64,000 nucleotides of DNA from an uncultured Candidatus Rokubacteria bacterium (GCA_963708025.1 CAVPSB010000013.1:256001-320000); one strand, 5' to 3'. Positions 3 through 57,282 are shown, counted from the first letter of the stretch. Notes: generated by a model from the sequence alone, not told the origin. Program-made: numbers and translations.

Positions 3-1551
3 CACCACCCGCCCCATCTCTACGCCACGCCGCTCTACCTCGAGGACGTCCGGCTCACCGCCGGGCGTCATGCGGGCCGGCGGACCGCGCTCGTGTTCGC
101 CGCCACCAGCAGCGGCTGGGTCCACGCCGTCGCGGCGGGGTGCGGCGAGCCCGCGCTCCCGCCTGGTACCATCGTCTGGACGACGCGGCTCGGGAGCCCG
201 GTGGTGGTGCCGGCGCTGGACGGCGGCGTCCCCCTCGGGGTCCTGAGCACGCCGACGATCGATCGCGCCGCCATCCCGCCCCGCCTGTACGTGACCGCCC
301 TCGACGCGACCCACGGCTGGCGCGTCTTCGCCCTCGACCTCGGCGATGGCGGGGTGCTGGCCGGCTGGCCGCTCACGCTCGACCCGGCGACGCTCGGCCG
401 CGTCAACGGAAACGGCCCCGCGCCCTTCGGCCCGGCCGCCGAGATGTCCCAGCGCGCCGCGCTCGCGCTCGCCCCGGGCGGCGGTCGGCTCTACGTGGCA
501 TTCGGCACCTTCCGCGGGACCGGACCGGGATGGATGGTTGCCGTTCAACACGCGACGGCCAGCCGTGGCCGGCGCGTTCGCCGGCGCGCGGGGCCCCGGG
601 GGGATGTCCAGCGCCGGGATGTGGGGCTCAGGAGGCCCGGCGCTCGACGCCGACGGCCGCGTCTACATGACGACGGGGAACAGCCCCGGCGACTCGGGGC
701 CGGCCGCCGGCCTCTGGGGCAACTCGCTCCTGGCCTGGACCCCGCCCCTCGCGCTGGCCGGCGCCTACACGCCGTTCAACTACTGCGGGCTCGACCGCGG
801 CGACATGGACCTGGGTGGCAGCACGCCGCTCGTCCTGCCCGACCTCGACTCCGCGACGACCGCGACGCCCCGTCTGGTCGCCTTCGGCGGCAAGCAGGGC
901 ACGGTCTACCTTCTGGACCGCGACCGGCTGCCCGGTCGCCTGGATCGCCGGCCGCCGTGCGGGACCGACGCCGCCGCCGATCGCTCGCTCCTCCCGCCGG
1001 GGCCGCAGCCGCAGTTCGGCCGGCGCGGCCCGCTCTCCGTCTTCGGGCCGTACACGGAGACCCACGCCCGGCTCGACCACGCCCGCATGCGGAGCACCCC
1101 CGCCTACTTCCGGGATGCGACCGGCGCCCACTATCTCTTCGTGACCGGGGCCGCGAAGGCCGCGCCGGCGAGCCCGGCGCCGGTGCCGCCCGGGCTCGCG
1201 CGGCTGCGCGTGGTCACCGCTCCCGGCGCTCCGGCCTACCTCGCGGTGGACGCCGTGGAGGGTCGGACGACCCTCTGGAACCCCGGGTCGCCGGTGGTCA
1301 CCAGCGCGGGGCCGCACGACGCGGTGGTGTGGGTGCTCGACTCGAACCAGCCGCGGACGGCGGCGCTCGCCGGCCCCGGCGCCGCCCGGCCGGTCCTCTA
1401 CGCCTTCGACGCGGCGACGCTGAGGCTCCTCTGGCGAAGCGCGCCGGAGGCCCTCGATGTGGGCGGCAAGTACAGCGCCCCCACGGTCGCCCGCGGCCGC
1501 GTCTTCGTGGGGACGGACCGCATCCAGGCCTTCGGCCTCCGCCCCCGCTGA
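3..1551 (+). CDS. PQQ-like beta-propeller repeat protein; 5'-partial, one frameshift near 545-560
   Basis: Frame 3 from the window edge reads HLYATPLYLEDV...VFAATSSGWVHAV...GVLSTPTID...QRAALAL...LYVAFG. It continues in frame 1 (ORF 346..1551) as GMWGSGGPALD..VYMTTGN..DMDLGGSTP..GGKQGTVYLLDR..KYSAPTVARGRVFVGT, which are propeller-blade motifs. Confidence 0.7.
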
Positions 1552-1692: not shown

Positions 1693-2322
1693 ATGGGACC
1701 TTTTCGCGACATCGTGACCACGCTGGACGAGCTGCGAGCGCTCCTGGGCGAGCCGAGCGACGTGGCCCGGAAGAAGCAGGTGGACCGGCTCGACGAGCAC
1801 TGCCGCGCCTTCATCGCGCACTCGCCGTTCGTGCTGATCGGGACGGCCGACCCCGCCGGCCGCTGCGACGTGTCCCCGAAGGGCGACCCGGCCGGCTTCG
1901 TCCTCGTCCTCGACGACCACCATCTCGTCATTCCCGACCGGCCGGGCAACCGGCGGCTCGACGGCATGCGCAACATCCTCGCCAACCCGCAGGTGGGGCT
2001 CCTGTTCCTGGTGCCGGGGCGCGGCGAGACGCTCCGCGTGAACGGCCGCGCCGCGATCGTCCGCGACGCCGAGGTGCTCGCCCGGCTGGTGGTCGAGGGC
2101 AAGACGCCACGGCTGGCCATCGGGGTCGAGGTGGAGGAGGTCTTCCTGCACTGCGCCAAGGCCTTCAAGCGCTCGAGCCTGTGGCGCCCCGAGGCGTGGC
2201 CGGACATCACGTCGCTGGCCTCCGCCGCCTGCATGCTGCTGGCGCACGCCCAGCCCGACGGCATGACGCTCGAGCAGATGGAGCAGCGCCTGCGGCACTC
2301 CTACGACACCCAGCTCTACTGA
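1693..2322 (+). CDS. Pyridoxamine 5'-phosphate oxidase-like FMN-binding protein (MSMEG_1061 type)
   Basis: Motifs DVSPKGDPAGF, IPDRPGNRRLD, VGLLFLVPG.GETLRVNGRA, FLHCAKAFKRS; GGAGGAG RBS before ATG 1693. Confidence 0.85.
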   Translation: MGPFRDIVTTLDELRALLGEPSDVARKKQVDRLDEHCRAFIAHSPFVLIGTADPAGRCDVSPKGDPAGFVLVLDDHHLVIPDRPGNRRLDGMRNILANPQVGLLFLVPGRGETLRVNGRAAIVRDAEVLARLVVEGKTPRLAIGVEVEEVFLHCAKAFKRSSLWRPEAWPDITSLASAACMLLAHAQPDGMTLEQMEQRLRHSYDTQLY

Positions 2323-3435
2323 GGCCGAGCCTCGAGCGCCCGACCGGGGCTCGGGGGCTGCGGTACTCGAAGGGGACGTCGGCGCCGGCTTCCGCGGCCT
2401 CCGCGCGGGCGGCCTCGACCAGGCCGTGGTCGGGCGAGAGGGAGCAGGCGGGATCGGTCGCCGCGGCGGCGCCGGTCAGGTGATAGGCCTGGCAACGGCA
2501 GCCGCCGAAGTCGAGGGTCCGCCGGTCGCAGCTCCGGCACGGCTCGGACATCCAAGCCTCGCCGCGATAGGCGTTGAAGCCGGCGGAGTGGTGCCAGATG
2601 TCGGCCAGGCTCCGCTCCTTCACGTTCTCGAACGCGAGCCCGGGCAGCGTGTGGGCCAGGTGGCACGGGAGCGCCAGCCCGTCCGGGCTCAGGATGATGA
2701 AGCGCCGCCCCCACCCGTCCATGCACGCCTTCGGGAACTCCGTGTAGTAGTCCGGGAAGACGAAGAGAACTTCCATCTTGCCCCGCAGGCGATCGCGGGC
2801 GGCGCGGGCGAGGGCCCGGGCGCCGTCGAGCTGGGCGCGGGTGGGCAGGAGCGCCCGGCGGTTCAGGAGCGCCCAGCCGAGGTACTGGGTGTTGGCCAGC
2901 TCCAGCCGGTCGGCCGCGAGCGACTCGGCGAGCGCGATCACGTCGGCCACGTGGTCCGAGGTTCTCGCGGTGGAGCACGGTGTTCAGCGTGAGCGGCATC
3001 CCGAGGTCCTTCACCCACCGGGCGACCTCGAGCTTCCGGTCGAAGGAGCGGAGGCCGGCGATCCGGTCGGAGCCGGCGGCGGTCACGTCCTGGATCGAGA
3101 CCTGGACGTTGTCGAGCCCCAGCCCGCGCAGGCGGGCGAGCCGCTCCCGGGTCAGCGGGATGCCGCTGGTGATGAGGTTCGTGTAGAGGTCGAGGGCCCG
3201 GGCCCGCTCGACGAGAGCGCTCGAGGTCGTCGCGGACCAGGGGCTCGCCGCCGGTCAGGTTGAGCTGGACCACGCCCAGCCCCTCGGCCTCGTCGAGGAC
3301 CCGGAGCCACGTCGCCGTGTCCAGCTCGTCGCCGTGGCGGGCGTAGTCGAGCGGGTTGGAGCAGTACACGCACCGGAGCGGGCACCGGTAGGTCAGCTCG
3401 GCCACCAGCGTGTACGGCCGGTACTCGTCGGTCAT
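2316..3435 (-). CDS. pqqE: PQQ biosynthesis radical SAM/SPASM protein PqqE; frameshifts near 3220 and 2958, 3' end uncertain (2316 or 2207)
   Basis: [19 protein letters not shown] (CxxxCxxC), [48 protein letters not shown], split over three reading-frame segments. Confidence 0.92.
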
Positions 3436-3723
3436 GCGTCGCCTGCCGCGTCCAGGACCACGCCGCGGTCGGTCATGGTCTTCAGGAAGTCCGTCACCTG
3501 GCGCTCGACCTCCTGGCGGGGCTGACGTCACGTACTTCTCGACGAGCCGGTCGACGATCGCCTCCACCGTGTGCTCCCCGGTGCAGAGCTGGAGGACGTC
3601 GGCCGCCGTCTGGTTCAGGAGGAGCCCCCGCTCGGGATAGAGGAGCATGAACCGCTCGCTCTTCCGATCGTACCGCAGGCGGGCCTTGCCGGCGAGCCGG
3701 GGCCGCGGCTCGCGGGCGGTCAT
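3432..3723 (-). CDS. pqqD: PqqA-binding chaperone PqqD; frameshift near 3522
   Basis: [34 protein letters not shown]. The C-terminal helix [21 protein letters not shown] is in another frame and ends in an ATGA overlap with pqqE. Confidence 0.88.
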
Positions 3724-4478
3724 GGAGACGCGGGAGCGGCCGCGCCGCCGGCCGGCGGCGGCCCCCAGCCGGGCTCGACGTAGGCCAGGTACAGGGAGTC
3801 GAGGAGGTGCCAGAGGATCTCGGTCTTGCGGATCAGCGCCGCCACGCATCGAGCCTGGAGCTCGTAGGTCGGCGCGTGGCGGAAGACGAAGTCGATGGCC
3901 TCCTCGGAATCCCGCCGGGCCCGCGGCACCCGGGAGCGGAAGTAGGCGAGCATCTCCGGGCTGACCCAGGGGTAGTGCCGCTCCCAGGCGGCGATGCGCC
4001 GGGACATGAGGTCGGGGGCGAAGAACTCGGTCAATGAGGAGGCGACCGCCTCCACCAGGCTCCGCTCGCGGACGAGCTGGACGTAGCCGTCGCACGCGAA
4101 GCGGACCCCCGGCAGCACCGAGCGGCAGCTCGCCACCTCCTCAACGTCGAGGCCGACGCCCTCGGCCAGCCGCAGCCAGAGCGCCAGCCCGCCCTCGCCC
4201 TCGCGCTCGCCGTCGTGGTCCTGGACCCGGCGGATCCACATCCGGCGGAACGCGGGGTCCTCCGACTTCGACAGGATGATGGCGTCCTTGATCGGCACCC
4301 GGGTCTGGTAGTAGTAGCGGTTCAGCACCCACTGCTGGAGCTGGAGCCGGGTGAGCTTCCCGTCGTGCATCATGACGTGATAGCGGTGATGGTCGTGGTA
4401 GCGGGCGGCGCCCTCCCGCCGCAGCCACTCCACGAGCTCCTCGCGCGAGAGCGCCGGCCGCTCGGCGGAGCCGGTCAC
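3720..4478 (-). CDS. pqqC: Pyrroloquinoline-quinone synthase PqqC
   Basis: [54 protein letters not shown] overlap with the pqqB stop. Confidence 0.93.
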
Positions 4479-5395
4479 AGCGTCACCTCGAGCCCGTCGG
4501 CGGCGACCTCCCAGCCGGCGGCGACGACGGCGGCGCGCTCGGCGGAGTCCTCGCGCAGGACGGGGTTCGTGTTGTTCACGTGGATGAAGATCCGCCGGGG
4601 CGCCCCGAGCCCGGCCAGCGCCCCGAGGCTCCCGCCGGCGCCGCCGATCGGGAGGTGGGCCATCGCGGCCGCCGGCTTCGTCCCGAGCCCCTGCCCCGGC
4701 AGCTCCTCCTCCGACCAGAACGTCCCGTCGAAGAACACGCAGTCGGCGCCCTCCAGGGCGAGCCGGACCGCGCCCGACACCGCGCCGACGGCCGGGAGGT
4801 AGGCGAGGCAGCGGCCGGTCGTCGCCTCGCGGATCCGGAGGCCGACGTTGTCCTCGGGGTCCGGGGAGAGCGACGCCTCGAGGTGGATGGGCAGCTTGCC
4901 GGGCATCGCCACGGCCTCCACCGTGAGCCCGCTGGGCCGGCCGCCCGGGAGCGTCAGCTCCTCCTCGCGGCCGAGCTTGAGCGGCCGCCAGGTGACCTGG
5001 TCGGGGAACCGCTCGAGCGTCCGGTACAGCACGTTGCCGTCGGTGAATCCCCGCCGGACGCGCTCGGTCGCGTAGACGACCAGCGGGTGGGACTCGCGGA
5101 GCGATAGGAGTCCGAGGCAGTGATCGAGGTCGCCGTTGGTCAGGAGGATGCCGGCGATCGGCGAATGCCGCGGCCCGCGGGGATGGAGCGGCGGGAAGCT
5201 CTCGATCTGCTGGCGGATCTCCGGGGACGCGTTGAGGAGGAACCAGTGGTCGCCGTCGGCGCTCAGCGCGACCGACTCCTGGGTGCGGGGCACGGCGCGG
5301 AGCGCCCCGGTCCGGACCCCGCGGCAGTTGCCGCAGCCGCAGTTCCACTGCGGGAACCCCCCGCCGGCCGCCGAGCCCAGGACGCGGATGCGCAC
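4475..5395 (-). CDS. pqqB: PQQ biosynthesis protein PqqB (metallo-beta-lactamase fold)
   Basis: VLGSAAGGGFPQWNCGCGNC, RTQ.S, LLNASPEI, DHCLGLLSLRE, FFDGTFW, IHVNNTNP; GGAGGAG RBS. Confidence 0.95.
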   Translation of the reverse strand: MRIRVLGSAAGGGFPQWNCGCGNCRGVRTGALRAVPRTQESVALSADGDHWFLLNASPEIRQQIESFPPLHPRGPRHSPIAGILLTNGDLDHCLGLLSLRESHPLVVYATERVRRGFTDGNVLYRTLERFPDQVTWRPLKLGREEELTLPGGRPSGLTVEAVAMPGKLPIHLEASLSPDPEDNVGLRIREATTGRCLAYLPAVGAVSGAVRLALEGADCVFFDGTFWSEEELPGQGLGTKPAAAMAHLPIGGAGGSLGALAGLGAPRRIFIHVNNTNPVLREDSAERAAVVAAGWEVAADGLEVTL

Positions 5396-5528
5396 GGTCC
5401 GCTCCTCCCCATCGAAGAACGGCTCGCGACCCTCAGCGGGGCCCGTTGGCACGACGCGAGACAGCGTCGACTCGCGGCCGGATGGCAAGACCTACAGTGC
5501 GATGCGGTGAAACGCGACGCTGCTCGGA

Positions 5529-5557
5529 TCTTAGAAGAGGTCCCGCCGGCCGTCAAG
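5529..5557 (-). promoter_or_regulatory. Putative sigma70 promoter for pqqBCDE
   Basis: Minus strand reads TTGACG-17 nt-TAAGAT, about 135 nt upstream of the pqqB start. Confidence 0.55.
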
Positions 5558-6380
5558 GGGCCGGACGCGGTGGCGGGCGATGCTCGATGCCGTAGCGGGC
5601 ATAGATGCGCTGCACGGTGCCGTCGGCCAGGAGCCGATCGAGGGCGGCGTCGATCGCCTCCCGGAGCGGCGGGTCGGACCGCCGCAGGCCGACCGCCAGG
5701 TCCCAGGCCAGCTCCGGCTCCGCGTCGTACGCGTGCACGAGCCGGACCGCGCGGTCGGGATGCGTCAGGTTGAAGTACCCGACGCTGGCCGGCGAGACCG
5801 CCGCGGCGTCCACCTCGCCCCGAGCCACCGCCTCCACCATCTCGTCCTCGAAGCCGAACGAAGCGACCTGGACCCCCCGTCGTCCGAGAATCATCGCGGC
5901 CAGCGAGCCGGACAGCACGGCCACCCGGCGGTGCCCGTCGAGATCGGTGAATCCCGCGATGCCGCCCGCCGGGGACCGGACGGCGAGCGCCACGCCGCTC
6001 CGCTGATACGGCTTCGAGAGCACGATGTTCCGCTCGGCCTGGGCCTCCGGAACCGCGATCGAGTCGAGGATGAGGTCGCAGTTGACGCTCCGGAACTGGA
6101 AGCCGCTCGTCACCCACTCGACCACCAGCCGGACGCCGAGCTGGGCGGCCAGCGCGGTCGCCAGCTCGATCTGGAACCCGGCCGGGTTGCCCTGCTTGCT
6201 CGAGAAAGGCAGGGCGTTGGCGTGGGCGCACAGGGACACGACCCCCCGCTGCCTGACCGCCTGGAGGGAGCGGGCCCCCGCCAGGGGCGCGATCGCCGAC
6301 ACGGCCAGCGCGACGAGCACCGCCAGGGCGCCGGCCGACCGTGATCTCGGCGCCCGTGACGAAGTGCCGGCGGCTCCCAT
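5553..6380 (-). CDS. Quinoprotein dehydrogenase-associated periplasmic binding protein (MoxJ/XoxJ-like)
   Basis: Signal peptide; VSLCAHANALPFSS..GFQIELA..CDLIL..SKPYQRSG (family 3 SBP with Cys pair); position after PQQ-DH and cytochrome c; GGGAGG RBS. Confidence 0.8.
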   Translation of the reverse strand: MGAAGTSSRAPRSRSAGALAVLVALAVSAIAPLAGARSLQAVRQRGVVSLCAHANALPFSSKQGNPAGFQIELATALAAQLGVRLVVEWVTSGFQFRSVNCDLILDSIAVPEAQAERNIVLSKPYQRSGVALAVRSPAGGIAGFTDLDGHRRVAVLSGSLAAMILGRRGVQVASFGFEDEMVEAVARGEVDAAAVSPASVGYFNLTHPDRAVRLVHAYDAEPELAWDLAVGLRRSDPPLREAIDAALDRLLADGTVQRIYARYGIEHRPPPRPAP

Positions 6381-6405
6381 TCCTCCCGCCCGACAGGCTC
6401 TCACT

Positions 6406-6765
6406 TCACTTGAGCGCGCGGATGTACGCCACGATGGCCCGGATCTGCTCCTCGTTGAAGACGCCGCCGAACGCGGGCATCTGCCCTTGCTTGCCGTTCT
6501 TGATCCGGTTGACGATGTACTGGTCGGGTTGCTCCAGCCCCGCCAGCTTCGGCCCCTTGCCGACGCTGCGGCCGCCGTCCTGATGGCACCAGCCGCAGAG
6601 CGTGGCAAAGAGCTTTTCGCCCTCTATCACGCCGGTGGCGGCCGGGCCCCCGCCCGGCGCCGCGGCGGTCGGTCCCTGGGCCGGCGCCGGCGCCGGCTCG
6701 AACAACCAGACGGCGGCGACCACACCGACCACCGCCGTCATGTACACGGCTCCGCGCCGCTCCAC
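6406..6765 (-). CDS. Small class I cytochrome c, probable electron acceptor of the adjacent PQQ dehydrogenase
   Basis: N-terminal hydrophobic segment, CGWCH heme motif, GPKL, distal Met in QMPAF. Confidence 0.88.
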   Translation of the reverse strand: MERRGAVYMTAVVGVVAAVWLFEPAPAPAQGPTAAAPGGGPAATGVIEGEKLFATLCGWCHQDGGRSVGKGPKLAGLEQPDQYIVNRIKNGKQGQMPAFGGVFNEEQIRAIVAYIRALK

Positions 6766-6841
6766 GATGCTTCTCTCCGGCTCCTCCGATGGACGGGGCG
6801 GGGGCCGGAGCCCCCGCCCGCCTCACCTCTCCCGATCGGCG

Positions 6842-8572
6842 CTACTCGAGCGAGAACACCTTGAGCGCGCCGGCGTCCTTCGGCATGCTGATGAACGGCT
6901 CGCCGAACAGACCGGCGTACTCGTCGCCGACCAGCGAGCCCCAGCCGGTGGCGACCGCGATGTACTGCTTGCCCTTCGCGGTGTAGCTGATGATCCCACC
7001 GACGTGGCCGATGCCGTTGTTGTGCGACCAGAGCTGCTGCCCGGTCTGGGCATCGTAGGCGCGGAGATAGCCGCGCGCATCCGGCACGAACAGCAGGTTC
7101 CCGCCCGTCGCCAGCAAGCTTGCCAGCGGCGGCTCCGGGAAGAAGATCTCCCACTTCATGGCCCCGGTCACCGGGTCTCGGGCGTTGACGTGACCGTGGG
7201 CGATGCCGCCCTCGGGGTTCCGGAGCTTGAAGTCGGCCCCGATGTTGAGCTGGGCCTGGGGCTCCAGGATGGGCGTCGTCTTGACGACCTTCAGGTCCAT
7301 GCACCATTCCTGGCCGACCTTGTAGTAGAGGCCGGTCTTCGGGCTGTAGGCGCCGGTGTTCCAGCTGATGCCGCCGGCGATCGCCGGGCAGAGGTTCTTG
7401 TGCTCGCCCTCGGCCAGGTCACGCCGGCCGATGAGCGCGCCGGTCTTGGGGTCGATGTCCTTCACGAAGTTGATGTTCTTCACCAGCCGCCAGACGTTCT
7501 CGATCTTGCCGTTCGACCGGTCGTAGACGAACACGAAGCCGCCCTTGTTCGGGTGGACGACCAGCTTCTTGCCGTCCCGCTCGATCATCACGAACTCGCC
7601 GACCGCGCTGTCGAAGTCCCAGGCGTCGTGCGGCAGCTCCTGGTGGTAGAACTTGAGCTGCCCGTTGTCCGGATTGAGCCCGATGACCGAGGTCGTGTAG
7701 AGGTTCGTGCCCGGTCGCGGCCCCTTGGTCTCCCACTCCGAGCCGGCCCAGTCGTAGAGCGGCGCCGGGTTGCCGGTGCCCCACCACACCGTGTTGGTCT
7801 CGACGTCGTAGGCGCCGACCATCCAGCCGCCGCCACCGCCGGTCTGCCAGGAGTCGCCGCCCCACGTCTTCTTGGCGTCCTCGGTCCCGGCGACGGTGAA
7901 GAACTCCCAGGCCTTCTGGCCGGTCGCCGCGTCCACGCCGAAGATCGGGCCGCGCCACGGCCACTCGCCGCCCTGGGCGCCGATGATGACCTTGTCCTTG
8001 ACGACGAGCGGGGCGCCGGTGAAGCCGACCGTCAGCTTCTCCGAGTTGATCAGCTTGGTGTCCCAGGCCGGCTTGCCGGTCTTCATGTCCAGGGCGATCA
8101 GCCGCCCGTCGACGGTCCCGACGAAGACCTTCCCGTGGCCGAGGGCGATGCCCCGGGTGTACGGGCTGTGCGTCTGCGCCGCGACCAGGTCGTCGTTCAG
8201 CTTGGGGAAGAAGGACCAGATGAACTCGCCGGTGGCGCCGTCGAGCGCGAAGACACGGCTGTAGGAGCCCGTGTAGTAGAGGACGCCGTCGGCCACCAGC
8301 GGAAACGACTGCAGCCCGCGGGTCGTGCGGCCAGGATGGTGCGACCAGGCGACCCGGAGCCGCTTGACGTTGTCGGTGTTGACCTGATCGAGGGAGCTGT
8401 AGTGCCACGAGCGGTAGCTGCCGTGGTACGTCAGCCAGTCGTTGGGGTTCTTGTCCGCGGACTCGAGCCGGGACGGATCGATCGCCCACGCCGGGCCGGA
8501 CCAGCCTGCCAGGACGGCGGCCAGGATGGTCAGGGCCAGCGGGATGCGTCTCGCTCTCACCAGAGTCGTCAT
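6842..8572 (-). CDS. PQQ-dependent dehydrogenase, methanol/ethanol family; lanthanide-type D-x-D, lacks vicinal Cys-Cys
   Basis: Signal peptide, DWLTYHG..W.YSSL.Q, GGEWPWRG (Glu), GTGNPAP (Asn), HDAWDFD (Asp-x-Asp); THSPYTRG occupies the usual CC...NRG position. Confidence 0.92.
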   Translation of the reverse strand: MTTLVRARRIPLALTILAAVLAGWSGPAWAIDPSRLESADKNPNDWLTYHGSYRSWHYSSLDQVNTDNVKRLRVAWSHHPGRTTRGLQSFPLVADGVLYYTGSYSRVFALDGATGEFIWSFFPKLNDDLVAAQTHSPYTRGIALGHGKVFVGTVDGRLIALDMKTGKPAWDTKLINSEKLTVGFTGAPLVVKDKVIIGAQGGEWPWRGPIFGVDAATGQKAWEFFTVAGTEDAKKTWGGDSWQTGGGGGWMVGAYDVETNTVWWGTGNPAPLYDWAGSEWETKGPRPGTNLYTTSVIGLNPDNGQLKFYHQELPHDAWDFDSAVGEFVMIERDGKKLVVHPNKGGFVFVYDRSNGKIENVWRLVKNINFVKDIDPKTGALIGRRDLAEGEHKNLCPAIAGGISWNTGAYSPKTGLYYKVGQEWCMDLKVVKTTPILEPQAQLNIGADFKLRNPEGGIAHGHVNARDPVTGAMKWEIFFPEPPLASLLATGGNLLFVPDARGYLRAYDAQTGQQLWSHNNGIGHVGGIISYTAKGKQYIAVATGWGSLVGDEYAGLFGEPFISMPKDAGALKVFSLE

Positions 8573-8704
8573 GGCCTCGTCTCCTGAGTTCTGTGCGATG
8601 TCCCTCGGTCGATCTCCCCAGGCGATCGGAGGCTCGTCATCGAGCCCCGGCCTTCCCACCTCCTCCCAGCGCTCGACGCGCCACGGTGCGATCCGGCGCG
8701 CGCC

Positions 8705-9214
8705 TCAGGGCAGGCTGATCCGCGACGCCCGGCCGGGGACCGGGCCGGTGACCCGAACCTGGCGGCCCGGCATCAGCCCGGTCAGCGACGGCGCCCCCGG
8801 TCCCTCGTCGGCGACGTAGAAGCCGTGGACGCGACCCGAGCCGTCTTCGACCAGGAGCACGCGACGGAGCGGGTCGACGGTCTTGACGATCCCCACCGCC
8901 TCGACACCGGATGGCGTTGCGGCGCAGCGGCGGGTGGTGGGCTCGACGCGGCCGTCGGGTGTGGCCGTCAGCCGGCCCTGGCAGTCGCGAAACTGGACCT
9001 CGCCGGTCTCGCCGGCGACGAGCCAGCCGAGGCTCCGCCCCATTCCCATCACCAGGAGCTCTTCCGCGCCGGCCCCGGGCGGGTTGGCCAGGCCCGGCAG
9101 ACACGTGACCAGCGCCACTGCCGCCGCGGCTCCGATCCTGGTCCCGAGCGGTGCCACCGGGCGGGGTCCCCGAGAGTTCCCGCATGACACGACCACTTCG
9201 CTCCTGCCCACCAA
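8705..9214 (-). CDS. Hypothetical exported protein, possible C-terminal OB-fold; start uncertain
   Basis: Hydrophobic signal-like segment, beta-rich GIVKTVD..LLVED..L.PG.QVRVTG; co-oriented between pqqA and the dehydrogenase. Confidence 0.5.
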   Translation of the reverse strand: MVGRSEVVVSCGNSRGPRPVAPLGTRIGAAAAVALVTCLPGLANPPGAGAEELLVMGMGRSLGWLVAGETGEVQFRDCQGRLTATPDGRVEPTTRRCAATPSGVEAVGIVKTVDPLRRVLLVEDGSGRVHGFYVADEGPGAPSLTGLMPGRQVRVTGPVPGRASRISLP

Positions 9215-9296
9215 GGACCGCGCGACTACTTTTGAGCCGAGCGACGGCGGATGTCAAGGGCATGAGACGGCCGAGGCCAGGGCGACAGAGACGACA

Positions 9297-9324
9297 CAGC
9301 CCTGCTCGCGGACGAACAGGGCTG
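9297..9324 (-). terminator. Hairpin after pqqA (terminator or stabiliser)
   Basis: Minus strand CAGCCCTGTTCG-TCCG-CGAGCAGGGCTG followed by a pyrimidine-rich tail, about 30 nt after the pqqA stop. Confidence 0.5.
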
Positions 9325-9352
9325 CGCTACTTCCCGACGGGACCGATGCTGT

Positions 9353-9436
9353 CTAGATCCCCTCGTAGTCTTCCTGGTACGAGTTGACCTCCGCGTCCAT
9401 CTTGACCTCGACGAAGCTGGGTGTTTCCCACGTCAT
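9353..9436 (-). CDS. pqqA: PQQ precursor peptide PqqA, 27 aa: MTWETPSFVEVKMDAEVNSYQEDYEGI
   Basis: Translated by hand: W..P.F leader, E-x-x-x-Y core (EVNSY), strong GGAGGTGA RBS. Below the ORF-track size cutoff. Confidence 0.93.
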   Translation of the reverse strand: MTWETPSFVEVKMDAEVNSYQEDYEGI

Positions 9437-9492
9437 TCAACTCACCTCCATTCAGCCCCGAAGGGCACCGGCTCACGTGAGCTCGTGACCCG

Positions 9493-9522
9493 ATGGTAGA
9501 GGACGGCACTCGACCGCGTCAA
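9493..9522 (-). promoter_or_regulatory. Putative sigma70 promoter of pqqA
   Basis: Minus strand TTGACG-18 nt-TACCAT, about 57 nt upstream of the ATG. Confidence 0.55.
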
Positions 9523-9539
9523 GCCCTATTGCGGGGCCC

Positions 9540-9844
9540 TCTTGATGGTCTATAGAAATGTCCTCCCCTAACTGTTCAGTAGAAATGTCCTCCCATGGAG
9601 ACATGGGAGACCGTCACGATGAGTCGAAAGGAGGCCCCCCGGGCTGGCCTGGTCAAGGCGGCCCTGGCCGGTCAGATCAGCCATGCCGAAGGGGCCCACG
9701 CCCTCCAGATCAGCGTCCGCCAGTTCCGCCGGCACGGCCCGCTATCGGGAGACGGGCGTCCCGGGCCTGCTGCACGGCTCACCCCTCCAGGGGGCGGACA
9801 TTCTCACTGAACAGTTACGCGGACATTTCTACTGGACAGCGACA
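9540..9844 (+). mobile_element. Internally deleted IS (IS481/ISNCY-like), MITE-like relic
   Basis: Imperfect terminal IRs with doubled AGAAATGTCC / GGACATTTCT motifs; right end ...GCGACA. Transposase N-terminal HTH fragment (METVTMSRKE...LQISVRQFRR, 9595-9810). Flanked by direct repeat GCCCTATTGCGGGGCC at 9523-9538 and 9845-9860. Confidence 0.8.
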
Positions 9845-9862
9845 GCCCTATTGCGGGGCCGG

Positions 9863-10642
9863 TCAGCGTGCGCACCGGAACCCCAGATAGCGGAGCCGGG
9901 TCTCGGGCGGCAAGTGAGTCCGGGCCGCCGTCCGGAGGTGGCGGGGGGGAAAGTTCCAGGCGCCGCCACGGATGACCCGGCTCTCCCCGGCGGGCGGCCC
10001 CGCCGGATCGGACGGCGGCGACTCCGCGTAGTAGCGCTTCCCGTACCGGTCGCGCACCCACTCCCAGACGTTGCCCGCCATGTCGTGGGCGCCGTAGGGG
10101 CTGACCCCGGCCGGATAGCTTCCCACCGAGGTCACCCGCCCGACCGCGGCCGCGCCGTTCGCCCGCTCGGCGCTCCACTCGGCCCCCCAGGGAAACCGGC
10201 GGCCGTCGGGGCCGCGGGCCGCCTTCTCCCACTCGGCCTCGGTCGGGAGCCGGCCACCGCGCCAGCGGCAGTAGGCGTCGGCCTCGAACCACGACACACC
10301 GACGACGGGCAGGTCGGGCACAGCGAAGGCAGGCTCGTCCCAGCCGGCCGGCCCAAGCGCGCCGGCCCTGAGCCGCCAGGCCGACCCCTCGGGCGTCCAG
10401 TGCCGGGGCTCGTCGTAGCCGCCCGCCTCCAGGAACGCCGCGAAGCACGCGCGCGAGACCTCGCGGGCGTCGAGGGCGAAGCCGTCCAGCGTCACCCGAT
10501 GGCGGGGCTGCTCGTCGGGCGCCGTCTCCGCCTCGTCGGGGGCCGTGCCCATCCAGAACTCGCCGGCCGGGACGCGCACCATCTCGGCGCAGCCGGGCCC
10601 CACGGCGGCCAGGCCGAGCGCGAGGAGCCCGAGCGCCGTCAC
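9863..10642 (-). CDS. Formylglycine-generating-enzyme fold (SUMF1/EgtB/PvdO family) exported protein, no catalytic Cys pair
   Basis: MVRVPAGEFWMG, PVVGVSW..A.AYC.W.G.RLPTEAEWEKAARG, DMAGNVWEW, RGGAW..GFRC; GTGA overlap with the upstream gene. Confidence 0.88.
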   Translation of the reverse strand: MTALGLLALGLAAVGPGCAEMVRVPAGEFWMGTAPDEAETAPDEQPRHRVTLDGFALDAREVSRACFAAFLEAGGYDEPRHWTPEGSAWRLRAGALGPAGWDEPAFAVPDLPVVGVSWFEADAYCRWRGGRLPTEAEWEKAARGPDGRRFPWGAEWSAERANGAAAVGRVTSVGSYPAGVSPYGAHDMAGNVWEWVRDRYGKRYYAESPPSDPAGPPAGESRVIRGGAWNFPPRHLRTAARTHLPPETRLRYLGFRCAR

Positions 10643-11070
10643 CGCGGTGCGCTGCCCTGGCGGAGCTGCTCGTTGATCTGGAAGAGGGCGCGGTAGAGCG
10701 GCACCGTCAGGCGGTCCTGGTAGAAGTAGAAGTCCTCCAGCCGGGCCTTGTAGACCGTGGGGGCGTACGGGAATCGCACCTGGCCCGCGCGGCGCGTCGC
10801 GTCGAGCGCCTCGGGTGGCGGCGGCGCGCCGGGGGCGCTCCCCACCGCGTGCTCCAGCGCCCCGCCGATCAGGAACCCGGTGAGGAGCGCCAGCTTCTCG
10901 CCCTCCCCGAGGGCCCGCCACGCGTGACCGTCCATCGCCAGGAAGCTCGGCGCCGGCTGGGCCGCGACCGGGCGATCCAGGCTGACGTTCCCCATCAGCC
11001 CGAGCCCGAGGGCGACCGCCGTGGCGAGGCGGCGAGACGGTCGGCTACTTCTTGGCCTTGGCGGTGACAC
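10639..11070 (-). CDS. Hypothetical exported protein
   Basis: Signal-like N-terminus; overlaps both neighbours in operon fashion; globular DGHAW...LEDFYFYQDR segment. Confidence 0.65.
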   Translation of the reverse strand: MSPPRPRSSRPSRRLATAVALGLGLMGNVSLDRPVAAQPAPSFLAMDGHAWRALGEGEKLALLTGFLIGGALEHAVGSAPGAPPPPEALDATRRAGQVRFPYAPTVYKARLEDFYFYQDRLTVPLYRALFQINEQLRQGSAPR

Positions 11071-11578
11071 TGGGCGCCCGGGCGTCCGGGGACACGACCA
11101 GGTAGTCCCACATGCCGGCCACCCCGTGGGCGGCGACCCCGCACCACCACAGGAACCGGCCTTCCTTGTTCGCCACGAAGTCGAAGGTGTCCGTCTCGCC
11201 CGCCATCATGCCGGGGACGAGCCGCCGGGTGAGCGCCCGCGGGAAGGCGGGCTTGCCGCCCTCGACCGGCAGCGGGGTGACCTCGTCGATGACGGCCAGG
11301 CTGTGGGGCAGGGCGCCGAGTCCCTTGTTCTGGAACTCCACCGCCACCTTCCAGCCGAGCGGCACCGTCACCGTCATGTTCCCGTTGCCGTAGCCGTTGA
11401 AGTTCATGGTGCCGTTGCTGCCGTCGGCAGCGGCCACGAAGACGAGCCGCACGAGCTGCTTGTCGGCCTCGACCGTCATCCAGGGCGGCGTGATCTGCTC
11501 GTCGGCGCGCGCGACGAGCGTCAGCCCGACGAGGCCCGCACAGAGCGGGATGAGCCCGAGTCGGCACCGCCGCTTCAT
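11045..11578 (-). CDS. Sulfocyanin (SoxE)-like type 1 blue-copper protein
   Basis: MNFNGY.NG.M.V.VPLGW.V, PHSL (His), WCGVAAHGVAGMW (Cys/His/Met ligands); signal peptide; GGAGG RBS. Confidence 0.85.
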   Translation of the reverse strand: MKRRCRLGLIPLCAGLVGLTLVARADEQITPPWMTVEADKQLVRLVFVAAADGSNGTMNFNGYGNGNMTVTVPLGWKVAVEFQNKGLGALPHSLAVIDEVTPLPVEGGKPAFPRALTRRLVPGMMAGETDTFDFVANKEGRFLWWCGVAAHGVAGMWDYLVVSPDARAPSVTAKAKK

Positions 11579-11598
11579 CCTACCTCCCGGTGGGGAAA

Positions 11599-11640
11599 CA
11601 GCGAGGGAGGTGGCTCGCCACCTCCCTCGTTCCCTCGCTG
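11599..11640. repeat. Strong intergenic inverted repeat
   Basis: CAGCGAGGGAGGTGGC-TC-GCCACCTCCCTCG(TTCCCTCGCTG), between the dehydrogenase and sulfocyanin genes. Confidence 0.6.
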
Positions 11641-11653
11641 AATGACGGCGCCG

Positions 11654-13336
11654 CTACTTCTTCGGCAGCCCGAAGACGAACACCGTGTCGCCGTACTTGA
11701 AGTTGAGCTGGAAGTTGCCGCCGGCGGCCACCGCGATGAACTGCTCCCCGTCCACCTCGTAGGAGATCGGGGCCGCGTTGACGCCGGCGCCGGTGCTGAA
11801 CCGCCACAGCTCCTTCCCGGTCTTGGCGTCGAAGGCGTAGAAGTTGCCGGTGCCGTCCCCGCCGGTGAAGACGACGCCGCCCGCGGTGACCACGGGGCCG
11901 CCGATCATCGGATCCGGCAGCTTGTTCTGCCAGGCGATCTTCCCGGTGTTGACGTCGATGGCGCTGAAGGTGCCCCACTGCTCCTCGCCGGGGATCGCCA
12001 CGAACGCGCTCCCCAGCCAGAGCTTGCCCTTCTCGTAGGGCGCCGAGTGGGTGATGTACCACATCGGCTGGTGGAGGCCCAGGACGTACGCAAGCTGGGT
12101 GTCGGGGCTGTAGGCCACCGGCGACCACTCGGCCCCGCCGTTGGCGCCGGGCAGCATCCGGACTCCGGTCGGCGTCGGCTGGGCGAACATGTTCTCCTGG
12201 GGCACGAAGGCGTCGGAGCGGCGGATCAGCTTCCCGGTCGCGCGCTCCAGGACGTAGAACCAGCCCGTCTTGCCGGCGTGGCCGACCGCCTTGACGCCGC
12301 CCGTCTCGAACAGCACCGCGGGGCTGACCGCGTCGAGGTCCCACACGTCGTGGGGCACGAACTGGTAGTGCCACTTGTAAGCCCCGGTCGTGGCGCTGAT
12401 GGCCACCATCGACTCGGTGTAGAGGTTGTCACCGGGCCGGATCTCGCCGTCCAGATCGGGCGAGGGGTTGCCCACCACGATGAAGAGCGTATCGGTGTCG
12501 GGGTCCACCGCCGGGGTCATCCAGGTCGAGCCGCCACCCCGCTGCCAGGCGTCCTTGTACTTGGCGAAGTCGGCCTTTTCCTTGTTGATCTCGCGGTTGA
12601 GCTTCTCCCCTTCCCAGGTGGTGGGGCTCCACTTCCCCTCCCAGCCGGTGTCGGGGATGGTCCAGAACCGCCAGGCCCGCTTGCCGTCGGACGCGTTGTA
12701 GGCGTCCACGAACCCGCGGACGCCGTACTCGGCCCCCGAGTTCCCCACGATGATCATGCCCTTGTAGGCCAGGGGCGCGATGGTCAGGCTGTAGCCGGCG
12801 GTCGCGTCGGCGACCTCCTGGTCCCACGCCACCTTCCCGGTCTTCTGGTCGAGGGCGATCAGGTGGGCGTCCAGGGTCGCCATGTAAACCTTGCCGTAGG
12901 CGACCGCCACGCCGCGGTTGTTGGGGCCGCAGCAGAGGATGGGGTTGCCGGCGAGCTTGTGCTCGTAGCGCCAGAGCTGCTTGCCGGTCCGGGCGTCGAC
13001 GGCGATGGCGTGGTTGTACGGGGTGGTCAGGTACATGACCCCGTCCACCACCAGCGGGGTGGTCTCGAACGACCCGATGGGACCGCTGGTCTGGTACACC
13101 CAGCGGGGCACCAGGCTCCCGACGTTCTGGGCGTTGATCTGGGTCAACGTCACGTAACGGGTATTGCTGTAGTCCTTGCCGTAGGTGAGCCAGTTCTTCG
13201 CGTCGGCCTTGGCACCGAGCAGCATCTGGTCGCTGACCTCGGTGTGGTTGACCTGGGCGAAAACGGGCGATGCGATCAGGAGGAAGAGAACGAGGACGGC
13301 GAGGCGAGGAACAAGGGTGCGGAACCCGCGGCTCAT
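11654..13336 (-). CDS. PQQ-dependent alcohol dehydrogenase family protein; Cys-Cys present, lanthanide-type D-x-D
   Basis: Signal peptide, NWLTYGKDY, CCGPNNRG, GAEYGVRG, GNPSPD, HDVWDLD, AGKTGWFY; no C-terminal heme domain. Confidence 0.92.
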   Translation of the reverse strand: MSRGFRTLVPRLAVLVLFLLIASPVFAQVNHTEVSDQMLLGAKADAKNWLTYGKDYSNTRYVTLTQINAQNVGSLVPRWVYQTSGPIGSFETTPLVVDGVMYLTTPYNHAIAVDARTGKQLWRYEHKLAGNPILCCGPNNRGVAVAYGKVYMATLDAHLIALDQKTGKVAWDQEVADATAGYSLTIAPLAYKGMIIVGNSGAEYGVRGFVDAYNASDGKRAWRFWTIPDTGWEGKWSPTTWEGEKLNREINKEKADFAKYKDAWQRGGGSTWMTPAVDPDTDTLFIVVGNPSPDLDGEIRPGDNLYTESMVAISATTGAYKWHYQFVPHDVWDLDAVSPAVLFETGGVKAVGHAGKTGWFYVLERATGKLIRRSDAFVPQENMFAQPTPTGVRMLPGANGGAEWSPVAYSPDTQLAYVLGLHQPMWYITHSAPYEKGKLWLGSAFVAIPGEEQWGTFSAIDVNTGKIAWQNKLPDPMIGGPVVTAGGVVFTGGDGTGNFYAFDAKTGKELWRFSTGAGVNAAPISYEVDGEQFIAVAAGGNFQLNFKYGDTVFVFGLPKK

Positions 13337-13542: not shown

Positions 13543-14466
13543 CTACGGCGTCGCCCGCCGCGCTTCGGGGGTGAGCCCGGCCGGCAGCTCGAAGCTGGCG
13601 GCGTCGAGCGGCCCGTCGTCGATCCGGGTGACCTCGCCCCGGTGGCGGAACAACGTCGCCTCGAGCTGGCCCCGCGCCGGCCCGACGAGCAGGCGCTCCC
13701 AGCGCAGGACGACCCCACCGAGCTTGCGCTGCTCCGCCTCCATCAGGCGGTGCATCAGCTCGAAGACCGCGAGGACGTCGCGCCGCTGGCCGAACACCCG
13801 GAGCTGGCGCTCCTGGAGCGCGCCGCGCTCGCCGGCCAGCTCCGCCACCCGCTCCTCGACCGCCCGCAGCTCCCGCGTCGCCGGAGTGTCCGGGGCCAGG
13901 CAGAGGTCGAACGTCATCGAGAAGCGCGACGGCGCCGGCTGGACCGGCCCCCCGCCGCGGGTGCCGGCGAGGACCACCTCGCGGGAGGCCCGCAGGACGA
14001 CCCGCTCGCACTCCCGCCCGCGCACCTGCTGGCGCTCCCCGCTCCGCTCCACGGCGACGGCCAGCACGGGAGGGCCCGCGGTCGGGTCCACCTTGAGGAC
14101 CCGCTCGGCCGCCGCCAGCACGTCCTCCTGCTCCTGCCGCACCGTCGCGTAAGTCTCCTCGGTGTAGGTGCCGGCGTCGAGGTTGATCTCGTAGCGCCGC
14201 CCCCGGTCGGGCTGCTCCAGGGTCACGCGGTGACCCGGCTTCTGGTAGCGCGCGCCCCGGCGCGTCACGACGGTGCGCCCACCCTTCGCCTCCTGGCGCA
14301 GCCGGTCGCCCTTGACGCTCACGGTGACCTGCTCCTCGAGCTCGACGGTGCCGCGGATCAGGGAATCGGTGGTGTACGCCACCAGCTCATATGAGACATC
14401 GGCCCGTGCCGGGCCGGCAACGCTGAGCACGAGTCCCAGGACGCCCCCGACCAGCCGTCGTCGCAT
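13543..14466 (-). CDS. Hypothetical exported protein (possibly DUF4412-like)
   Basis: GGAGG RBS, signal peptide, V.VKGDRLRQE and GERQQVRGREC motifs, ends FELPAG. Confidence 0.6.
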   Translation of the reverse strand: MRRRLVGGVLGLVLSVAGPARADVSYELVAYTTDSLIRGTVELEEQVTVSVKGDRLRQEAKGGRTVVTRRGARYQKPGHRVTLEQPDRGRRYEINLDAGTYTEETYATVRQEQEDVLAAAERVLKVDPTAGPPVLAVAVERSGERQQVRGRECERVVLRASREVVLAGTRGGGPVQPAPSRFSMTFDLCLAPDTPATRELRAVEERVAELAGERGALQERQLRVFGQRRDVLAVFELMHRLMEAEQRKLGGVVLRWERLLVGPARGQLEATLFRHRGEVTRIDDGPLDAASFELPAGLTPEARRATP

Positions 14467-42419: not shown

Positions 42420-42463
42420 GGACCCGGCCCGCTCCTCCGTCACCCGCGCTCGCGCCGGCGCCG

Positions 42464-43021: not shown

Positions 43022-43039
43022 CGCAGACCTCCTTTCAGC

Positions 43040-43105
43040 GCCTCCCGCCTACCCCCCCACCCCCCCCTCCCCCACCCACCGGGGGGGAGGGGGGAGCCGG
43101 AGGCC
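43040..43105 (-). repeat. G-rich intergenic repeat, copy D (5'-truncated)
   Basis: Reverse complement CTCCGGCTCCCCCTCCCCCCCGGTGGGTGGGGGAGGGGG..TAGGCGGGAGG. Confidence 0.75.
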
Positions 43106-43133
43106 GTCGCTCACTTCGGCGGACTTCCCGGGA

Positions 43134-47689: not shown

Positions 47690-47693
47690 GGCC

Positions 47694-49130: not shown

Positions 49131-49270
49131 GGGCGGCCTCCCGGGCTCCGACCTCGGCCCCGCAGGGCCACGGAACCCCGGTTTCGAAATGCGCGCTTGT
49201 GCCGCCAGTCTACCGCGTTCGCCGGGTCCTGTCACCGCCCCTGGGGCCTTCCGAAGCCGTCCCGGGGGAC

Positions 49271-49490: not shown

Positions 49491-49565
49491 TGCCTCTTCG
49501 ATGCGGGGCGGGAGTCATGCGATCAACCTCGTCCGTTGCAGTGACGCGCGGCCGTGTCAAGGACA

Positions 49566-54040: not shown

Positions 54041-54079
54041 GGGTCCACCTCCTCGGGTTTACTTCGTGTTCACCGGCTC

Positions 54080-55694: not shown

Positions 55695-55740
55695 GTCTGT
55701 CTCCTGCGTTCTTTGGGCCTCGTCGCGATCGGGTCGTGCG

Positions 55741-57251: not shown

Positions 57252-57282
57252 GCCTGTTTCTCCCCTGTCCTGGGGGGGCGCC

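Follow-up and report, generated by a model that had tools for sequence, protein, structure and literature searches.

The window analysed here is a 64,000-nucleotide stretch of DNA from an uncultured Candidatus Rokubacteria bacterium. It holds a real gene block around two PQQ dehydrogenases, DH1 and DH2, whose order, strand and motifs match the description given by an earlier, sequence-only reading: a single co-oriented block runs from DH2 to pqqBCDE, with every gene on the minus strand. The features are as follows.

13543..14466, minus strand: exported hypothetical protein, about 307 aa, a DH2 module member in Rokubacteriales, upstream of the range first described
11654..13336, minus strand: DH2, type I PQQ dehydrogenase (PF01011; TIGR03075, 504.7 bits)
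11045..11578, minus strand: SoxE/sulfocyanin-like cupredoxin (PF06525)
10639..11070, minus strand: hyp1, small exported all-helical protein that belongs to no known family
9863..10642, minus strand: FGE-sulfatase-fold protein (PF03781)
9539..9843, strand not assigned: IS relic, non-autonomous, MITE-like, with inverted repeats
9493..9522, minus strand: sigma-70-like promoter match 5' of pqqA (TTGACG-18-TACCAT), a consensus match only
9353..9436, minus strand: pqqA, precursor peptide (TIGR02107, 21.3 bits, cut-off 20; PF08042, 22, cut-off 21.1)
8705..9184, minus strand: hyp2, hypothetical protein, start uncertain
6842..8572, minus strand: DH1, periplasmic PQQ dehydrogenase (PF01011; TIGR03075, 473.8 bits)
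6406..6765, minus strand: monohaem class I cytochrome c, CGWCH...M (PF13442, PF00034)
5553..6380, minus strand: SBP_bac_3-fold protein, distant XoxJ/MxaJ/PedG-type (PF00497)
4475..5395, minus strand: pqqB (TIGR02108, 388 bits, cut-off 245)
3720..4478, minus strand: pqqC (TIGR02111, 317 bits, cut-off 240)
3432..3723, minus strand: pqqD (TIGR03859, PF05402), one frameshift in the 3' part as assembled
2207..3435, minus strand: pqqE, in three frames as assembled; homology stops near 2360

The IS relic is flanked by 17-bp direct repeats (9522-9538 and 9844-9860), and related copies are present on contigs C2, C25 and C16. Sigma-70-like sites number 2, against 0.3 expected. The exported hypothetical gene at 13543-14466 adjoins DH2 in 6/6 close orthologue regions (5 upstream, 1 downstream); its product falls in hypothetical clusters of the ESM Atlas at 0.95, where DUF4412, found in 19% of members, is a lead only. 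The FGE-fold gene had no match in the six DH2 orthologue regions examined (L117-L122) and is not conserved with DH2. No match to hyp2 was found in Pfam or NCBIfam; the gene occurs at 8 of the 80 DH1 loci, sometimes directly 5' of the DH1 orthologue.

The Glu, Asn and Asp-x-Asp that had been assigned to both dehydrogenases recur in our HMMER alignments, in register with PedH (Glu203, Asn290 and Asp333-x-Asp335 in DH2; Glu203, Asn268 and Asp319-x-Asp321 in DH1), and are invariant in both clades. DH2 and DH1 are 560 and 576 aa long, with a cytochrome domain absent in both; a type II quinohaemoprotein alcohol dehydrogenase, which has a C-terminal cytochrome c domain, was therefore rejected for DH1 and DH2 alike. 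DH2 scores above the TIGR03075 cut-off (480.05) for the PQQ-dependent methanol/ethanol family, which DH1 narrowly misses, and is predicted to be periplasmic, with a signal peptide judged by eye. The best PDB match of both enzymes is PedH (6ZCV/6ZCW; 338 and 299 bits), around the level at which the genome's own XoxF matches PedH (365), and assignment to PedH/ExaF (PQQ-ADH type 2b) was rejected. Assignment to XoxF (clades 1-5) was likewise rejected, as the best XoxF structure (6DAM) gave 277 and 257 bits compared with 921 for the genome's XoxF. For both enzymes, alcohol dehydrogenases outscore structures of the glucose and sorbose type. In a tree whose references were classed by similarity to the genome's XoxF and not by strain name, DH1 and DH2 each form their own starred clade outside the XoxF/MxaF branch, and the genome's XoxF, which lies on contig C49 with a J-type gene, sits on a separate branch. 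The scores and the tree thus agree with the sequence-only reading that neither enzyme is a canonical XoxF. Targeted literature searches found no description of either module. Both enzymes are unstudied, and the two clades may already bear a number among the Keltjens PQQ-ADH types (3-9).

DH2 belongs, by sequence, to an uncharacterised 'CCGPxNRG' clade; its vicinal ring (Cys135-Cys136) is kept in 120/120 close homologues, and the second Asp is present in 79/79 DH2-like metagenome ORFs. The adjoining cupredoxin has the fold and the ligands of a type-1 (blue) copper carrier: its AlphaFold2 model (pLDDT 97) matches rusticyanin best, and His92, Cys146, His151 and Met156 are kept in 102, 102, 101 and 99 of 104 homologues. 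Membership in the sulfocyanin equivalog (TIGR03094) was rejected (58.9 vs. 168.4). The cupredoxin occurs in 7 of 151 genomes from the order. These are exactly the genomes that carry an orthologue of DH2 at 77% identity or more, and in each the cupredoxin gene lies directly 3' of DH2. In a metagenome survey of 80 DH2 loci, of which 79 were counted, we split the loci at 57.2% identity, a value chosen after seeing the data, detected haem motifs by a heuristic, and limited counts to loci with at least 600 nt downstream. Of the 39 loci at or above the split, 33 could be counted; the cupredoxin comes after DH2 in 16 and is anywhere in the fetched DNA in 20, hyp1, the most constant neighbour, comes after it in 29, and the absence of a haem motif (0/33) indicates that no dedicated cytochrome c gene lies behind DH2. 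In a sister lineage nested beside this copper lineage (40 loci below 57.2%, 31 countable), a haem motif is found in 31/31 loci, with two motifs in 30, and neither cupredoxin nor hyp1 is found (0/31 each). These loci are kin and the split is one change on the tree, with the dihaem group on one starred branch, so the lineage counts are not independent. Two of the 33 copper-lineage loci have neither hyp1 nor cupredoxin. A further 11 carry hyp1, yet no cupredoxin was seen in the DNA fetched for them, which in several cases includes about 5 kb of downstream sequence; at such loci the acceptor is encoded elsewhere or is different.

Among the 10 longest of 150 listed cupredoxin matches, 3 are PQQ-dehydrogenase-SoxE fusions (P0374, P0487 and P0364). 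The two that are full-length share 49% identity with DH2 and join its clade at the base. In the fusions, L232 included, the cupredoxin takes up the C-terminal position on the dehydrogenase that in type II enzymes belongs to the haem domain. The fusions sit on long branches. Two further long matches join the cupredoxin to other partners, cytochrome c oxidase subunit II in one and cytochrome b/c in the other. hyp1 is often fused to the cupredoxin C-terminus; its own model (pLDDT 83) gave no Foldseek match at E<=0.001. Because copper without haem in one lineage is set against haem without copper in the other, and because natural dehydrogenase-cupredoxin fusions exist, the type-1 copper protein is the likely electron acceptor of DH2, as predicted from sequence.

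In DH1 the vicinal Cys-Cys is replaced by Gln133-Thr134-His135, aligned to GCCD of 1KB0, and this triplet is invariant, together with the E/N/D/D ligands, in 120/120 close homologues. The missing disulfide ring had escaped the earlier reading. The cassette of dehydrogenase, cytochrome c and binding protein is conserved, with cytochrome c in 75/80 and the SBP in 74/80 loci, and no cupredoxin was found at any of the 80. The monohaem cytochrome c is thus the likely acceptor of DH1, and the SBP-fold protein is likely a PQQ-loading chaperone, a role that an excerpt of PMC12276312 gives to MxaJ. The label 'MoxJ-like' holds for fold family and gene position, but the scores lie far under the MoxJ-family cut-offs (TIGR03871, 63.8 vs. 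212.15; TIGR03870, 32.2 vs. 258.1).

We consider it probable that two modules, each built around a PQQ dehydrogenase, form a patchwork beside the sole PQQ genes, DH2 passing electrons to blue copper and ring-less DH1 to monohaem cytochrome c, both with a lanthanide. The sequence-only reading had instead proposed a two-branch periplasmic oxidation system, one branch haem-coupled and one copper-coupled, that carries its own cofactor supply. Such a system would be co-regulated, its branches perhaps catalysing successive reactions of a single pathway, or acting on a shared substrate when copper or iron is short. The two branches stand, each enzyme having its own conserved acceptor-type gene, but we regard the single system as rather unlikely. 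In its favour, the genes are all co-oriented with short gaps, one DH1 locus (L007) bears hyp1 and hyp2 upstream, and homologues P0009 and P0127 are each listed on a contig of size 28510, which may be the same one. In genomes G030 and G001 the DH2 module has as its neighbour a cassette of a disulfide-free DH1 relative, cytochrome and SBP, which runs co-directionally into it in G030 and is adjacent but divergent in G001; this arrangement favours some real linkage, although the two genomes are of one genus and the relatives are just 54-60% identical to DH1. On a wider scale the block is not conserved as a whole: close DH1 orthologues (at least 79%) occur in 6 of the 151 genomes of the order, only G000 has a close DH2 too, and no other genome searched has both, so that by sequence the arrangement in relatives is mostly one of separate modules, not one fixed system. 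The IS relic and the promoter-like site lie between the two modules, the cupredoxin is absent from the DH1 loci, and pqqB is near DH1 in 2/80. The pqqB-E genes are the genome's only set and must also serve XoxF on C49, and a cofactor supply of the locus's own is not supported. It is very unlikely, in our view, that the locus is decaying in this strain, with pqqD and pqqE true pseudogenes, the IS relic inserted, and PQQ imported or the enzymes idle. The three frameshifts (one in pqqD, two in pqqE) do fall within about 600 bp and in the genome's sole copies of these genes, with a frameshift in just 1 of 38 other genes checked; however, that gene carries a cluster of three shifts, and C13 has a COX1 gene that is likewise split, as expected of local consensus errors, the pqqE pieces match an intact PqqE at 52-63% identity and are free of stops throughout the matched regions, and the remaining block genes are intact.

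Both enzymes have the 2Asp-Glu-Asn ligand set of the lanthanide type, and from this motif lanthanide use by both is likely. If the wiring is as proposed, one or both could still use Ca2+ or either metal, or DH1, in the manner of other quinoproteins without the ring, could be a non-alcohol dehydrogenase (acting on a sugar, polyol, amine or aldehyde); we judge this unlikely. Asp-x-Asp is an imperfect marker of lanthanide use according to an excerpt of bioRxiv 10.64898/2026.07.14.738520, and most GDH references bear this motif (PMC11996626); DH1 lies just under the methanol/ethanol family cut-off and is without the ring that an excerpt of PMC12997753 ties to electron transfer in ExaA, and no conserved catabolic neighbour pointing to an alcohol was found. 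Against this, neither clade shows any variation in the full canonical ligand set, Asp-x-Asp is present in each of the genome's three PQQ dehydrogenases, no MxaF was found there, and the sugar-type structures score lower. That the cupredoxin is co-inherited but not the direct acceptor, acting instead as a copper chaperone, or further down the chain as a shuttle that supplies NirK or an oxidase, while DH2 reduces a cytochrome encoded elsewhere, strikes us as quite improbable. The 11 copper-lineage loci without cupredoxin and a SoxE-like gene behind nirK in Deinococcus would fit such a role, as would the use of cytochrome c by characterised type I enzymes (excerpt of PMC12997753) and the access of type II enzymes to azurin through their own haem domain (excerpt of PMC8348568). 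Yet the cupredoxin fills, with no overlap, the slot held by the dihaem cytochrome in the nested lineage, is fused where the type II haem domain sits, and keeps the full electron-transfer ligand set.

Under the patchwork reading, DH1 and DH2 would be exported, and load PQQ and Ln3+ at the 2Asp-Glu-Asn site. Their substrates would be alcohols or aldehydes; methanol is left out because XoxF on C49 covers it. In DH2, electrons from PQQH2 would pass the Cys-Cys ring straight to type-1 copper with no haem between, and the cupredoxin would hand them on to a haem-copper oxidase or NirK; the genome encodes several COX1 genes and one nirK as candidate sinks. hyp1, which neighbours DH2 more constantly than any other gene and is frequently joined to the cupredoxin, is likely a dedicated maturation or docking partner of DH2, the weakest step of the scheme. 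The SBP-fold protein would load PQQ into DH1 as MxaJ does, and with Gln-Thr-His in place of the ring, the path of electrons to cytochrome c would differ from that in MxaF and ExaA, and the substrate pocket probably would too.

Compared with PedH (Pseudomonas putida), ExaF and ExaA, which work with cytochrome c550 (PedF/ExaB) and PedG, both enzymes share the haem-less propeller and 2Asp-Glu-Asn, and the DH1 cassette mirrors the dehydrogenase-cytochrome-binding protein set; however, the scores are about a third of a within-clade match (the 921-bit control), DH1 is ring-less, and DH2 is accompanied by cupredoxin and hyp1 where those systems have a cytochrome and a binding protein. The lanthanide methanol dehydrogenase module XoxF-XoxG-XoxJ shares the Asp-x-Asp site and three-gene layout with the DH1 cassette, whereas DH1 and DH2 branch apart from the true XoxF. 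The natural acceptor of type II quinohaemoprotein alcohol dehydrogenase is the blue copper protein azurin, as an excerpt of PMC8348568 states. In these enzymes (1KB0, 1KV9, 1YIQ) electrons first pass the fused cytochrome c domain, whereas DH2 has no haem; solved 1KB0 also lacks the second Asp (WDYT/S), and P0374 and P0487 carry a cupredoxin in the fused position. Methylamine and aromatic amine dehydrogenases pass quinone electrons to type-1 copper (amicyanin, azurin) without haem, with a protein-derived TTQ cofactor, an unrelated fold, and no PQQ or lanthanide.

More tentatively, DH2 might represent a widespread lanthanide clade with a haem-free exit from PQQ to type-1 copper and DH1 a ring-less lanthanide quinoprotein reducing cytochrome c, so that one cell could move periplasmic oxidation between copper and iron carriers. 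If true, a new small helical subunit would tether DH2 and the type-1 copper protein, the proteobacterial lineage would have gained its dihaem cytochrome later, as a replacement, and DH1 would skip a disulfide ring thought essential for cytochrome c reduction, while its conserved His above PQQ would give new chemistry. Sulfocyanin (SoxE), rusticyanin and auracyanin share the cupredoxin fold and His-Cys-His-Met with the DH2-linked protein, which differs in falling far under the sulfocyanin cut-off and in being tied to a PQQ dehydrogenase. Not all SoxE-like proteins accompany PQQ enzymes: in Microvirga and Sinorhizobium, for example, they stand alone, and in Deinococcus one lies behind nirK.

Characterised type I PQQ alcohol dehydrogenases pass electrons to cytochrome c via a ring of two vicinal cysteines over PQQ. 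Both halves of this rule have a natural exception at this locus: the dehydrogenase DH2 has the ring and a blue-copper protein as gene partner, and the dehydrogenase DH1 is ring-less and has a cytochrome as gene partner. The features concerned are:

11654-13336 (-), DH2, PQQ dehydrogenase with Cys-Cys
11045-11578 (-), SoxE/sulfocyanin-like cupredoxin
10639-11070 (-), hyp1, small helical protein
9863-10642 (-), FGE-fold gene
9539-9843, IS relic
9353-9436 (-), pqqA
8705-9184 (-), hyp2, hypothetical protein
6842-8572 (-), DH1, ring-less PQQ dehydrogenase
6406-6765 (-), cytochrome c
5553-6380 (-), SBP_bac_3-fold binding protein
2207-5395 (-), pqqB to pqqE

The sequence-only reading had described this gene order in a single orientation, and every gene indeed lies on the minus strand; a further gene of the DH2 module, at 13543-14466 upstream of DH2, lay outside its range. 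The Glu, Asn and Asp-x-Asp that it had assigned to both dehydrogenases are in register with PedH in the alignments. Among the 120 sequences closest to each enzyme (query included), which are close kin (59-87% identity) so that residue conservation is inflated, E203, N268, D319 and D321 of DH1 were kept in 120 of 120. For DH2, 118 sequences kept E203 and N290, 119 kept D333 and D335, and the others had gaps there. Cys135-Cys136 was present in 120 of the 120 sequences closest to DH2, and DH1 has Gln133-Thr134-His135 at that site (120 of 120), an absence of the vicinal Cys-Cys that the sequence-only reading missed. In ExaA the ring has been connected with the passage of electrons to cytochrome c550 (PMC12997753), and for MxaF it is described as critical to catalysis (PMC12276312). 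According to bioRxiv 10.64898/2026.07.14.738520, a pair of aspartates is no sure sign of lanthanide use, but the main exceptions in that study lack Glu, whereas DH1 and DH2 both retain it; lanthanide use by the two enzymes is likely, although not certain. More ring-less Asp-x-Asp clades occur in Rokubacteriales and Alphaproteobacteria (fetched loci L249-L265, L102-L114, L220, L223 and L227), with LFFQPYNRG, SFFAHTRG or QLHPTNRG at the Cys-Cys site.

The closest named homologues of the window (256001-320000 of contig C13) belong to Candidatus Rokuibacteriota, which makes Rokubacteriales the probable order. We identified three PF01011 genes in the 8.2 Mb genome. The third protein, on contig C49, scored 921 bits against the methanol dehydrogenase 4MAE, which we take to be a XoxF2, and has a J-type gene behind it. 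This canonical XoxF belongs to a separate methylotrophy locus (C49:72000-82000) with a sigma-54-type regulator upstream and, downstream, genes presumably resembling fae and formyltransferase/hydrolase subunits. The best PDB scores were 338 bits for DH2 and 299 bits for DH1 (6ZCV), and scores to XoxF structures reached at most 277 and 257 bits, respectively; these low scores, and a tree that places both enzymes apart from the XoxF branch, support the earlier view that neither is a canonical XoxF. A tree was built with FastTree from the 131 proteins, of 271 from fetched loci, that were retained after dereplication; DH1 fell in a starred 26-row clade without Cys-Cys, and the starred clade that holds DH2 has 68 rows. 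A second tree comprised 56 hand-picked sequences. Because the first tree contains no named characterised enzyme, the position of both enzymes relative to PedH and MxaF was judged from the PDB scores, with 6ZCV equated with PedH through 6ZCW, so named in PMC11996626. Both clades may already be numbered in the tree figures of that paper's supplement (Keltjens types). XoxF has been reported in Rokubacteria, and the DH1 and DH2 modules were not among what the accessible portions of those reports contain (PMC5103831, PMC6784897); for a Bradyrhizobium strain, the functions of its further PQQ dehydrogenases are given as unknown in the part available of PMC12628762.

DH2 matches at E ≤ 1e-60 were found in 56 of 151 Rokubacteriales genomes, with at least 77% identity in 7 (the host genome included), and the cupredoxin was found in exactly those 7 of 151, where it comes directly after DH2, with hyp1 next. 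A metagenome scan with a 27-sequence alignment yielded 80 loci out of 580 confirmed ones, and 79 of the 80 were counted; L201, in which hyp1 comes next, was left out for its short ORF. We divided these loci at 57.2% identity to DH2, a cut that was set post hoc, yet agrees with the tree. In the copper lineage (at least 57.2%), 33 of 39 loci had at least 600 nt downstream (6 were left out); the cupredoxin came next in 16 and lay within the fetched DNA in 20, hyp1 came next in 29, and none of the 33 showed a haem motif there. In the dihaem lineage (below 57.2%), 31 of 40 had enough DNA (9 were left out), and all 31 had a haem motif, 30 of them two, with the cupredoxin and hyp1 in 0. The dihaem group forms one starred branch, and the copper/haem split requires one change on the tree. 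Because dihaem-paired DH2 relatives exist in cultured bacteria (Ideonella, Alloyangia and Microvirga), copper and haem partners could be exchanged experimentally inside one enzyme clade; among plasmid records of this lineage, a cytochrome c gene is present in Ideonella and Alloyangia and absent in Paraburkholderia sprentiae. Against the copper pairing, 11 of the 33 loci carry hyp1 but show no cupredoxin in the fetched DNA, a further 2 show neither gene, and SoxE-like genes on plasmids also stand behind nirK or alone.

Five loci of probable Gemmatimonadota (L138, L140, L145, L146 and L201) have a porin-like gene behind DH2-hyp1, a gene of XoxF type at 2-3 kb downstream, and no cupredoxin in the fetched DNA. 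SoxE-type genes lie on both sides of DH2 in L167, L171 and L182, the upstream one on the opposite strand, and upstream only in L162, L168, L170 and L153.

Of 104 cupredoxin homologues, 102 keep His92, 102 Cys146, 101 His151 and 99 Met156. The best match to the cupredoxin model (pLDDT 97) is the rusticyanin fold. When 1.84 billion representatives were searched with a profile, 2125 relatives of the cupredoxin came up, and the ten longest among the 150 listed include three PQQ dehydrogenase-SoxE fusions, one protein fused to oxidase subunit II and another fused to cytochrome b/c. The two full-length dehydrogenase fusions are 49% identical to DH2 and keep CCGP-NRG, Asp-x-Asp and the copper ligands; they take a basal position in the DH2 clade, on long branches, which suggests that copper may be an older partner than haem in this clade. 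The homologue P0324 (282 aa, annotated PQQ + SoxE) was not accepted as a fusion: its two halves are incomplete and meet in the middle of a domain, the pattern of an assembly chimera. The long DH2 homologues P0151, P0161, P0155 and P0150 showed no cupredoxin by eye and have low-complexity extensions instead. The same SoxE-type domain is fused to oxidase subunit II (P0451), cytochrome b plus c (P0489) and an ABC substrate-binding domain (P0347).

The protein hyp1 has a confident helical model, and many relatives carry it as a fusion with the cupredoxin. Foldseek (E ≤ 0.001) found no solved match to its fold, and the ESM Atlas returned clusters of hypothetical proteins, in which Rap1a (12% of members, 0.88) is no more than a lead. 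Complex prediction of DH2 with hyp1 (score 0.00, controls not folded) carries no weight for or against binding; from its gene position, hyp1 may have a role tied to DH2.

Of 490 DH1 loci in genomes we took the best 80, which are not independent because many come from Bradyrhizobium. A cytochrome c lies behind DH1 in 75 of the 80 and a binding-protein fold in 74, contig ends explaining three of five misses; the cupredoxin was found in 0, pqqB in 2, hyp2 in 8 and hyp1 in 1. Hosts are mostly Alphaproteobacteria, with Rokubacteria, Betaproteobacteria and one Vulcanimicrobiota genome, and cassettes with 72-79% identity occur in cultured Bradyrhizobium, Microvirga, Skermanella and Vineibacter. The layout is that of XoxF-G-J and PedE-F-G, but DH1 is ring-less. 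The protein proposed as MoxJ-like is the one with the binding-protein fold behind DH1, and its score is far under the MoxJ cut-offs; by analogy with MxaJ (PMC12276312), it would load PQQ into DH1. A DH1-cytochrome c-SBP cassette (72% identity) is also on a plasmid of the actinomycete Rhodococcus qingshengii djl-6 (L130:11935-16180), where it was apparently acquired from a Gram-negative bacterium. That plasmid has a TonB-dependent receptor gene with the cassette and an IS21 gene nearby.

The proposal of a two-branch system with its own PQQ supply fared unevenly. Each enzyme does have its own acceptor-type gene, but DH1 orthologues of at least 79% identity occur in 6 of 151 genomes, and the host genome is the only one that also has a close DH2. 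The pqq genes are the genome's sole set and must serve XoxF as well, which does not support a supply of the block's own. In favour of linkage, the DH2 module of two genomes of one genus (G030, whose DH2 orthologue is 80% identical, and G001) has next to it a DH1 relative of 54-60% identity, together with a cytochrome and a binding protein. Clustering of PQQ-related modules is common in the order (e.g., L019), and we read the block as such a cluster, not a dedicated two-branch machine. The FGE-fold gene was not found in the six DH2 orthologue regions, in a search that covered L007, L008, L019-L021 and L087-L129. Two promoter-like sites were found (0.3 expected), one between the IS relic and pqqA and one before pqqB.

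In the proposed mechanism, both enzymes would be exported and loaded with PQQ and Ln3+, and would oxidise an alcohol or aldehyde other than methanol, DH2 passing electrons to copper and DH1 to haem; several COX1 genes and one nirK are possible sinks. When the neighbours of 80 DH1 and 46 copper-lineage DH2 loci were clustered, no catabolic gene that could point to a substrate proved to be conserved. TTQ amine dehydrogenases use a blue copper acceptor. Type II quinohaemoproteins reach one via their own haem domain (PMC8348568). In the literature searched, with most subscription papers outside its scope, we met neither a PQQ dehydrogenase without haem that is paired or fused with a cupredoxin of the SoxE type nor the ring-less Gln-Thr-His clade; for a cupredoxin with PQQ and lanthanide there was nothing relevant, the sole match being a hypothetical gene of the lut cluster. 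The proposed oxidation by DH1 and DH2 would widen known lanthanide use in abundant soil bacteria past methanol.

As assembled, pqqD has one break and pqqE, single-copy in the genome, two; among 38 other genes checked, one had frameshifts (three, clustered), and a COX1 gene is also split. Our guess is that the pqqD and pqqE frameshifts are consensus errors. Sequencing runs contained part of the locus (best share 0.44, none reaching half). A probable beta-propeller protein without Pfam/NCBIfam match spans two frames at 93-1551 (+), likely with a frameshift too, near those of pqqD and pqqE.

The suspected IS relic is real, with inverted repeats flanked by 17-bp direct repeats and related copies on three other contigs. 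This MITE-like element (window 9522-9860; copies at C2:153783-154021, C25:31809-32049 and C16:51422-51484) has an unusually long flanking repeat, and this repeat overlaps the -35 box of the pqqA promoter-like site. Elsewhere in the window, 52352-61885 (-) encodes an Orn/Lys/Arg decarboxylase, two aspartate-alanine exchangers, an OprD porin and an aminotransferase, and at 40041-49514 (-) an RND efflux set (HlyD, AcrB and outer-membrane factor) has behind it, on its downstream side, a multihaem cytochrome-TPR protein.
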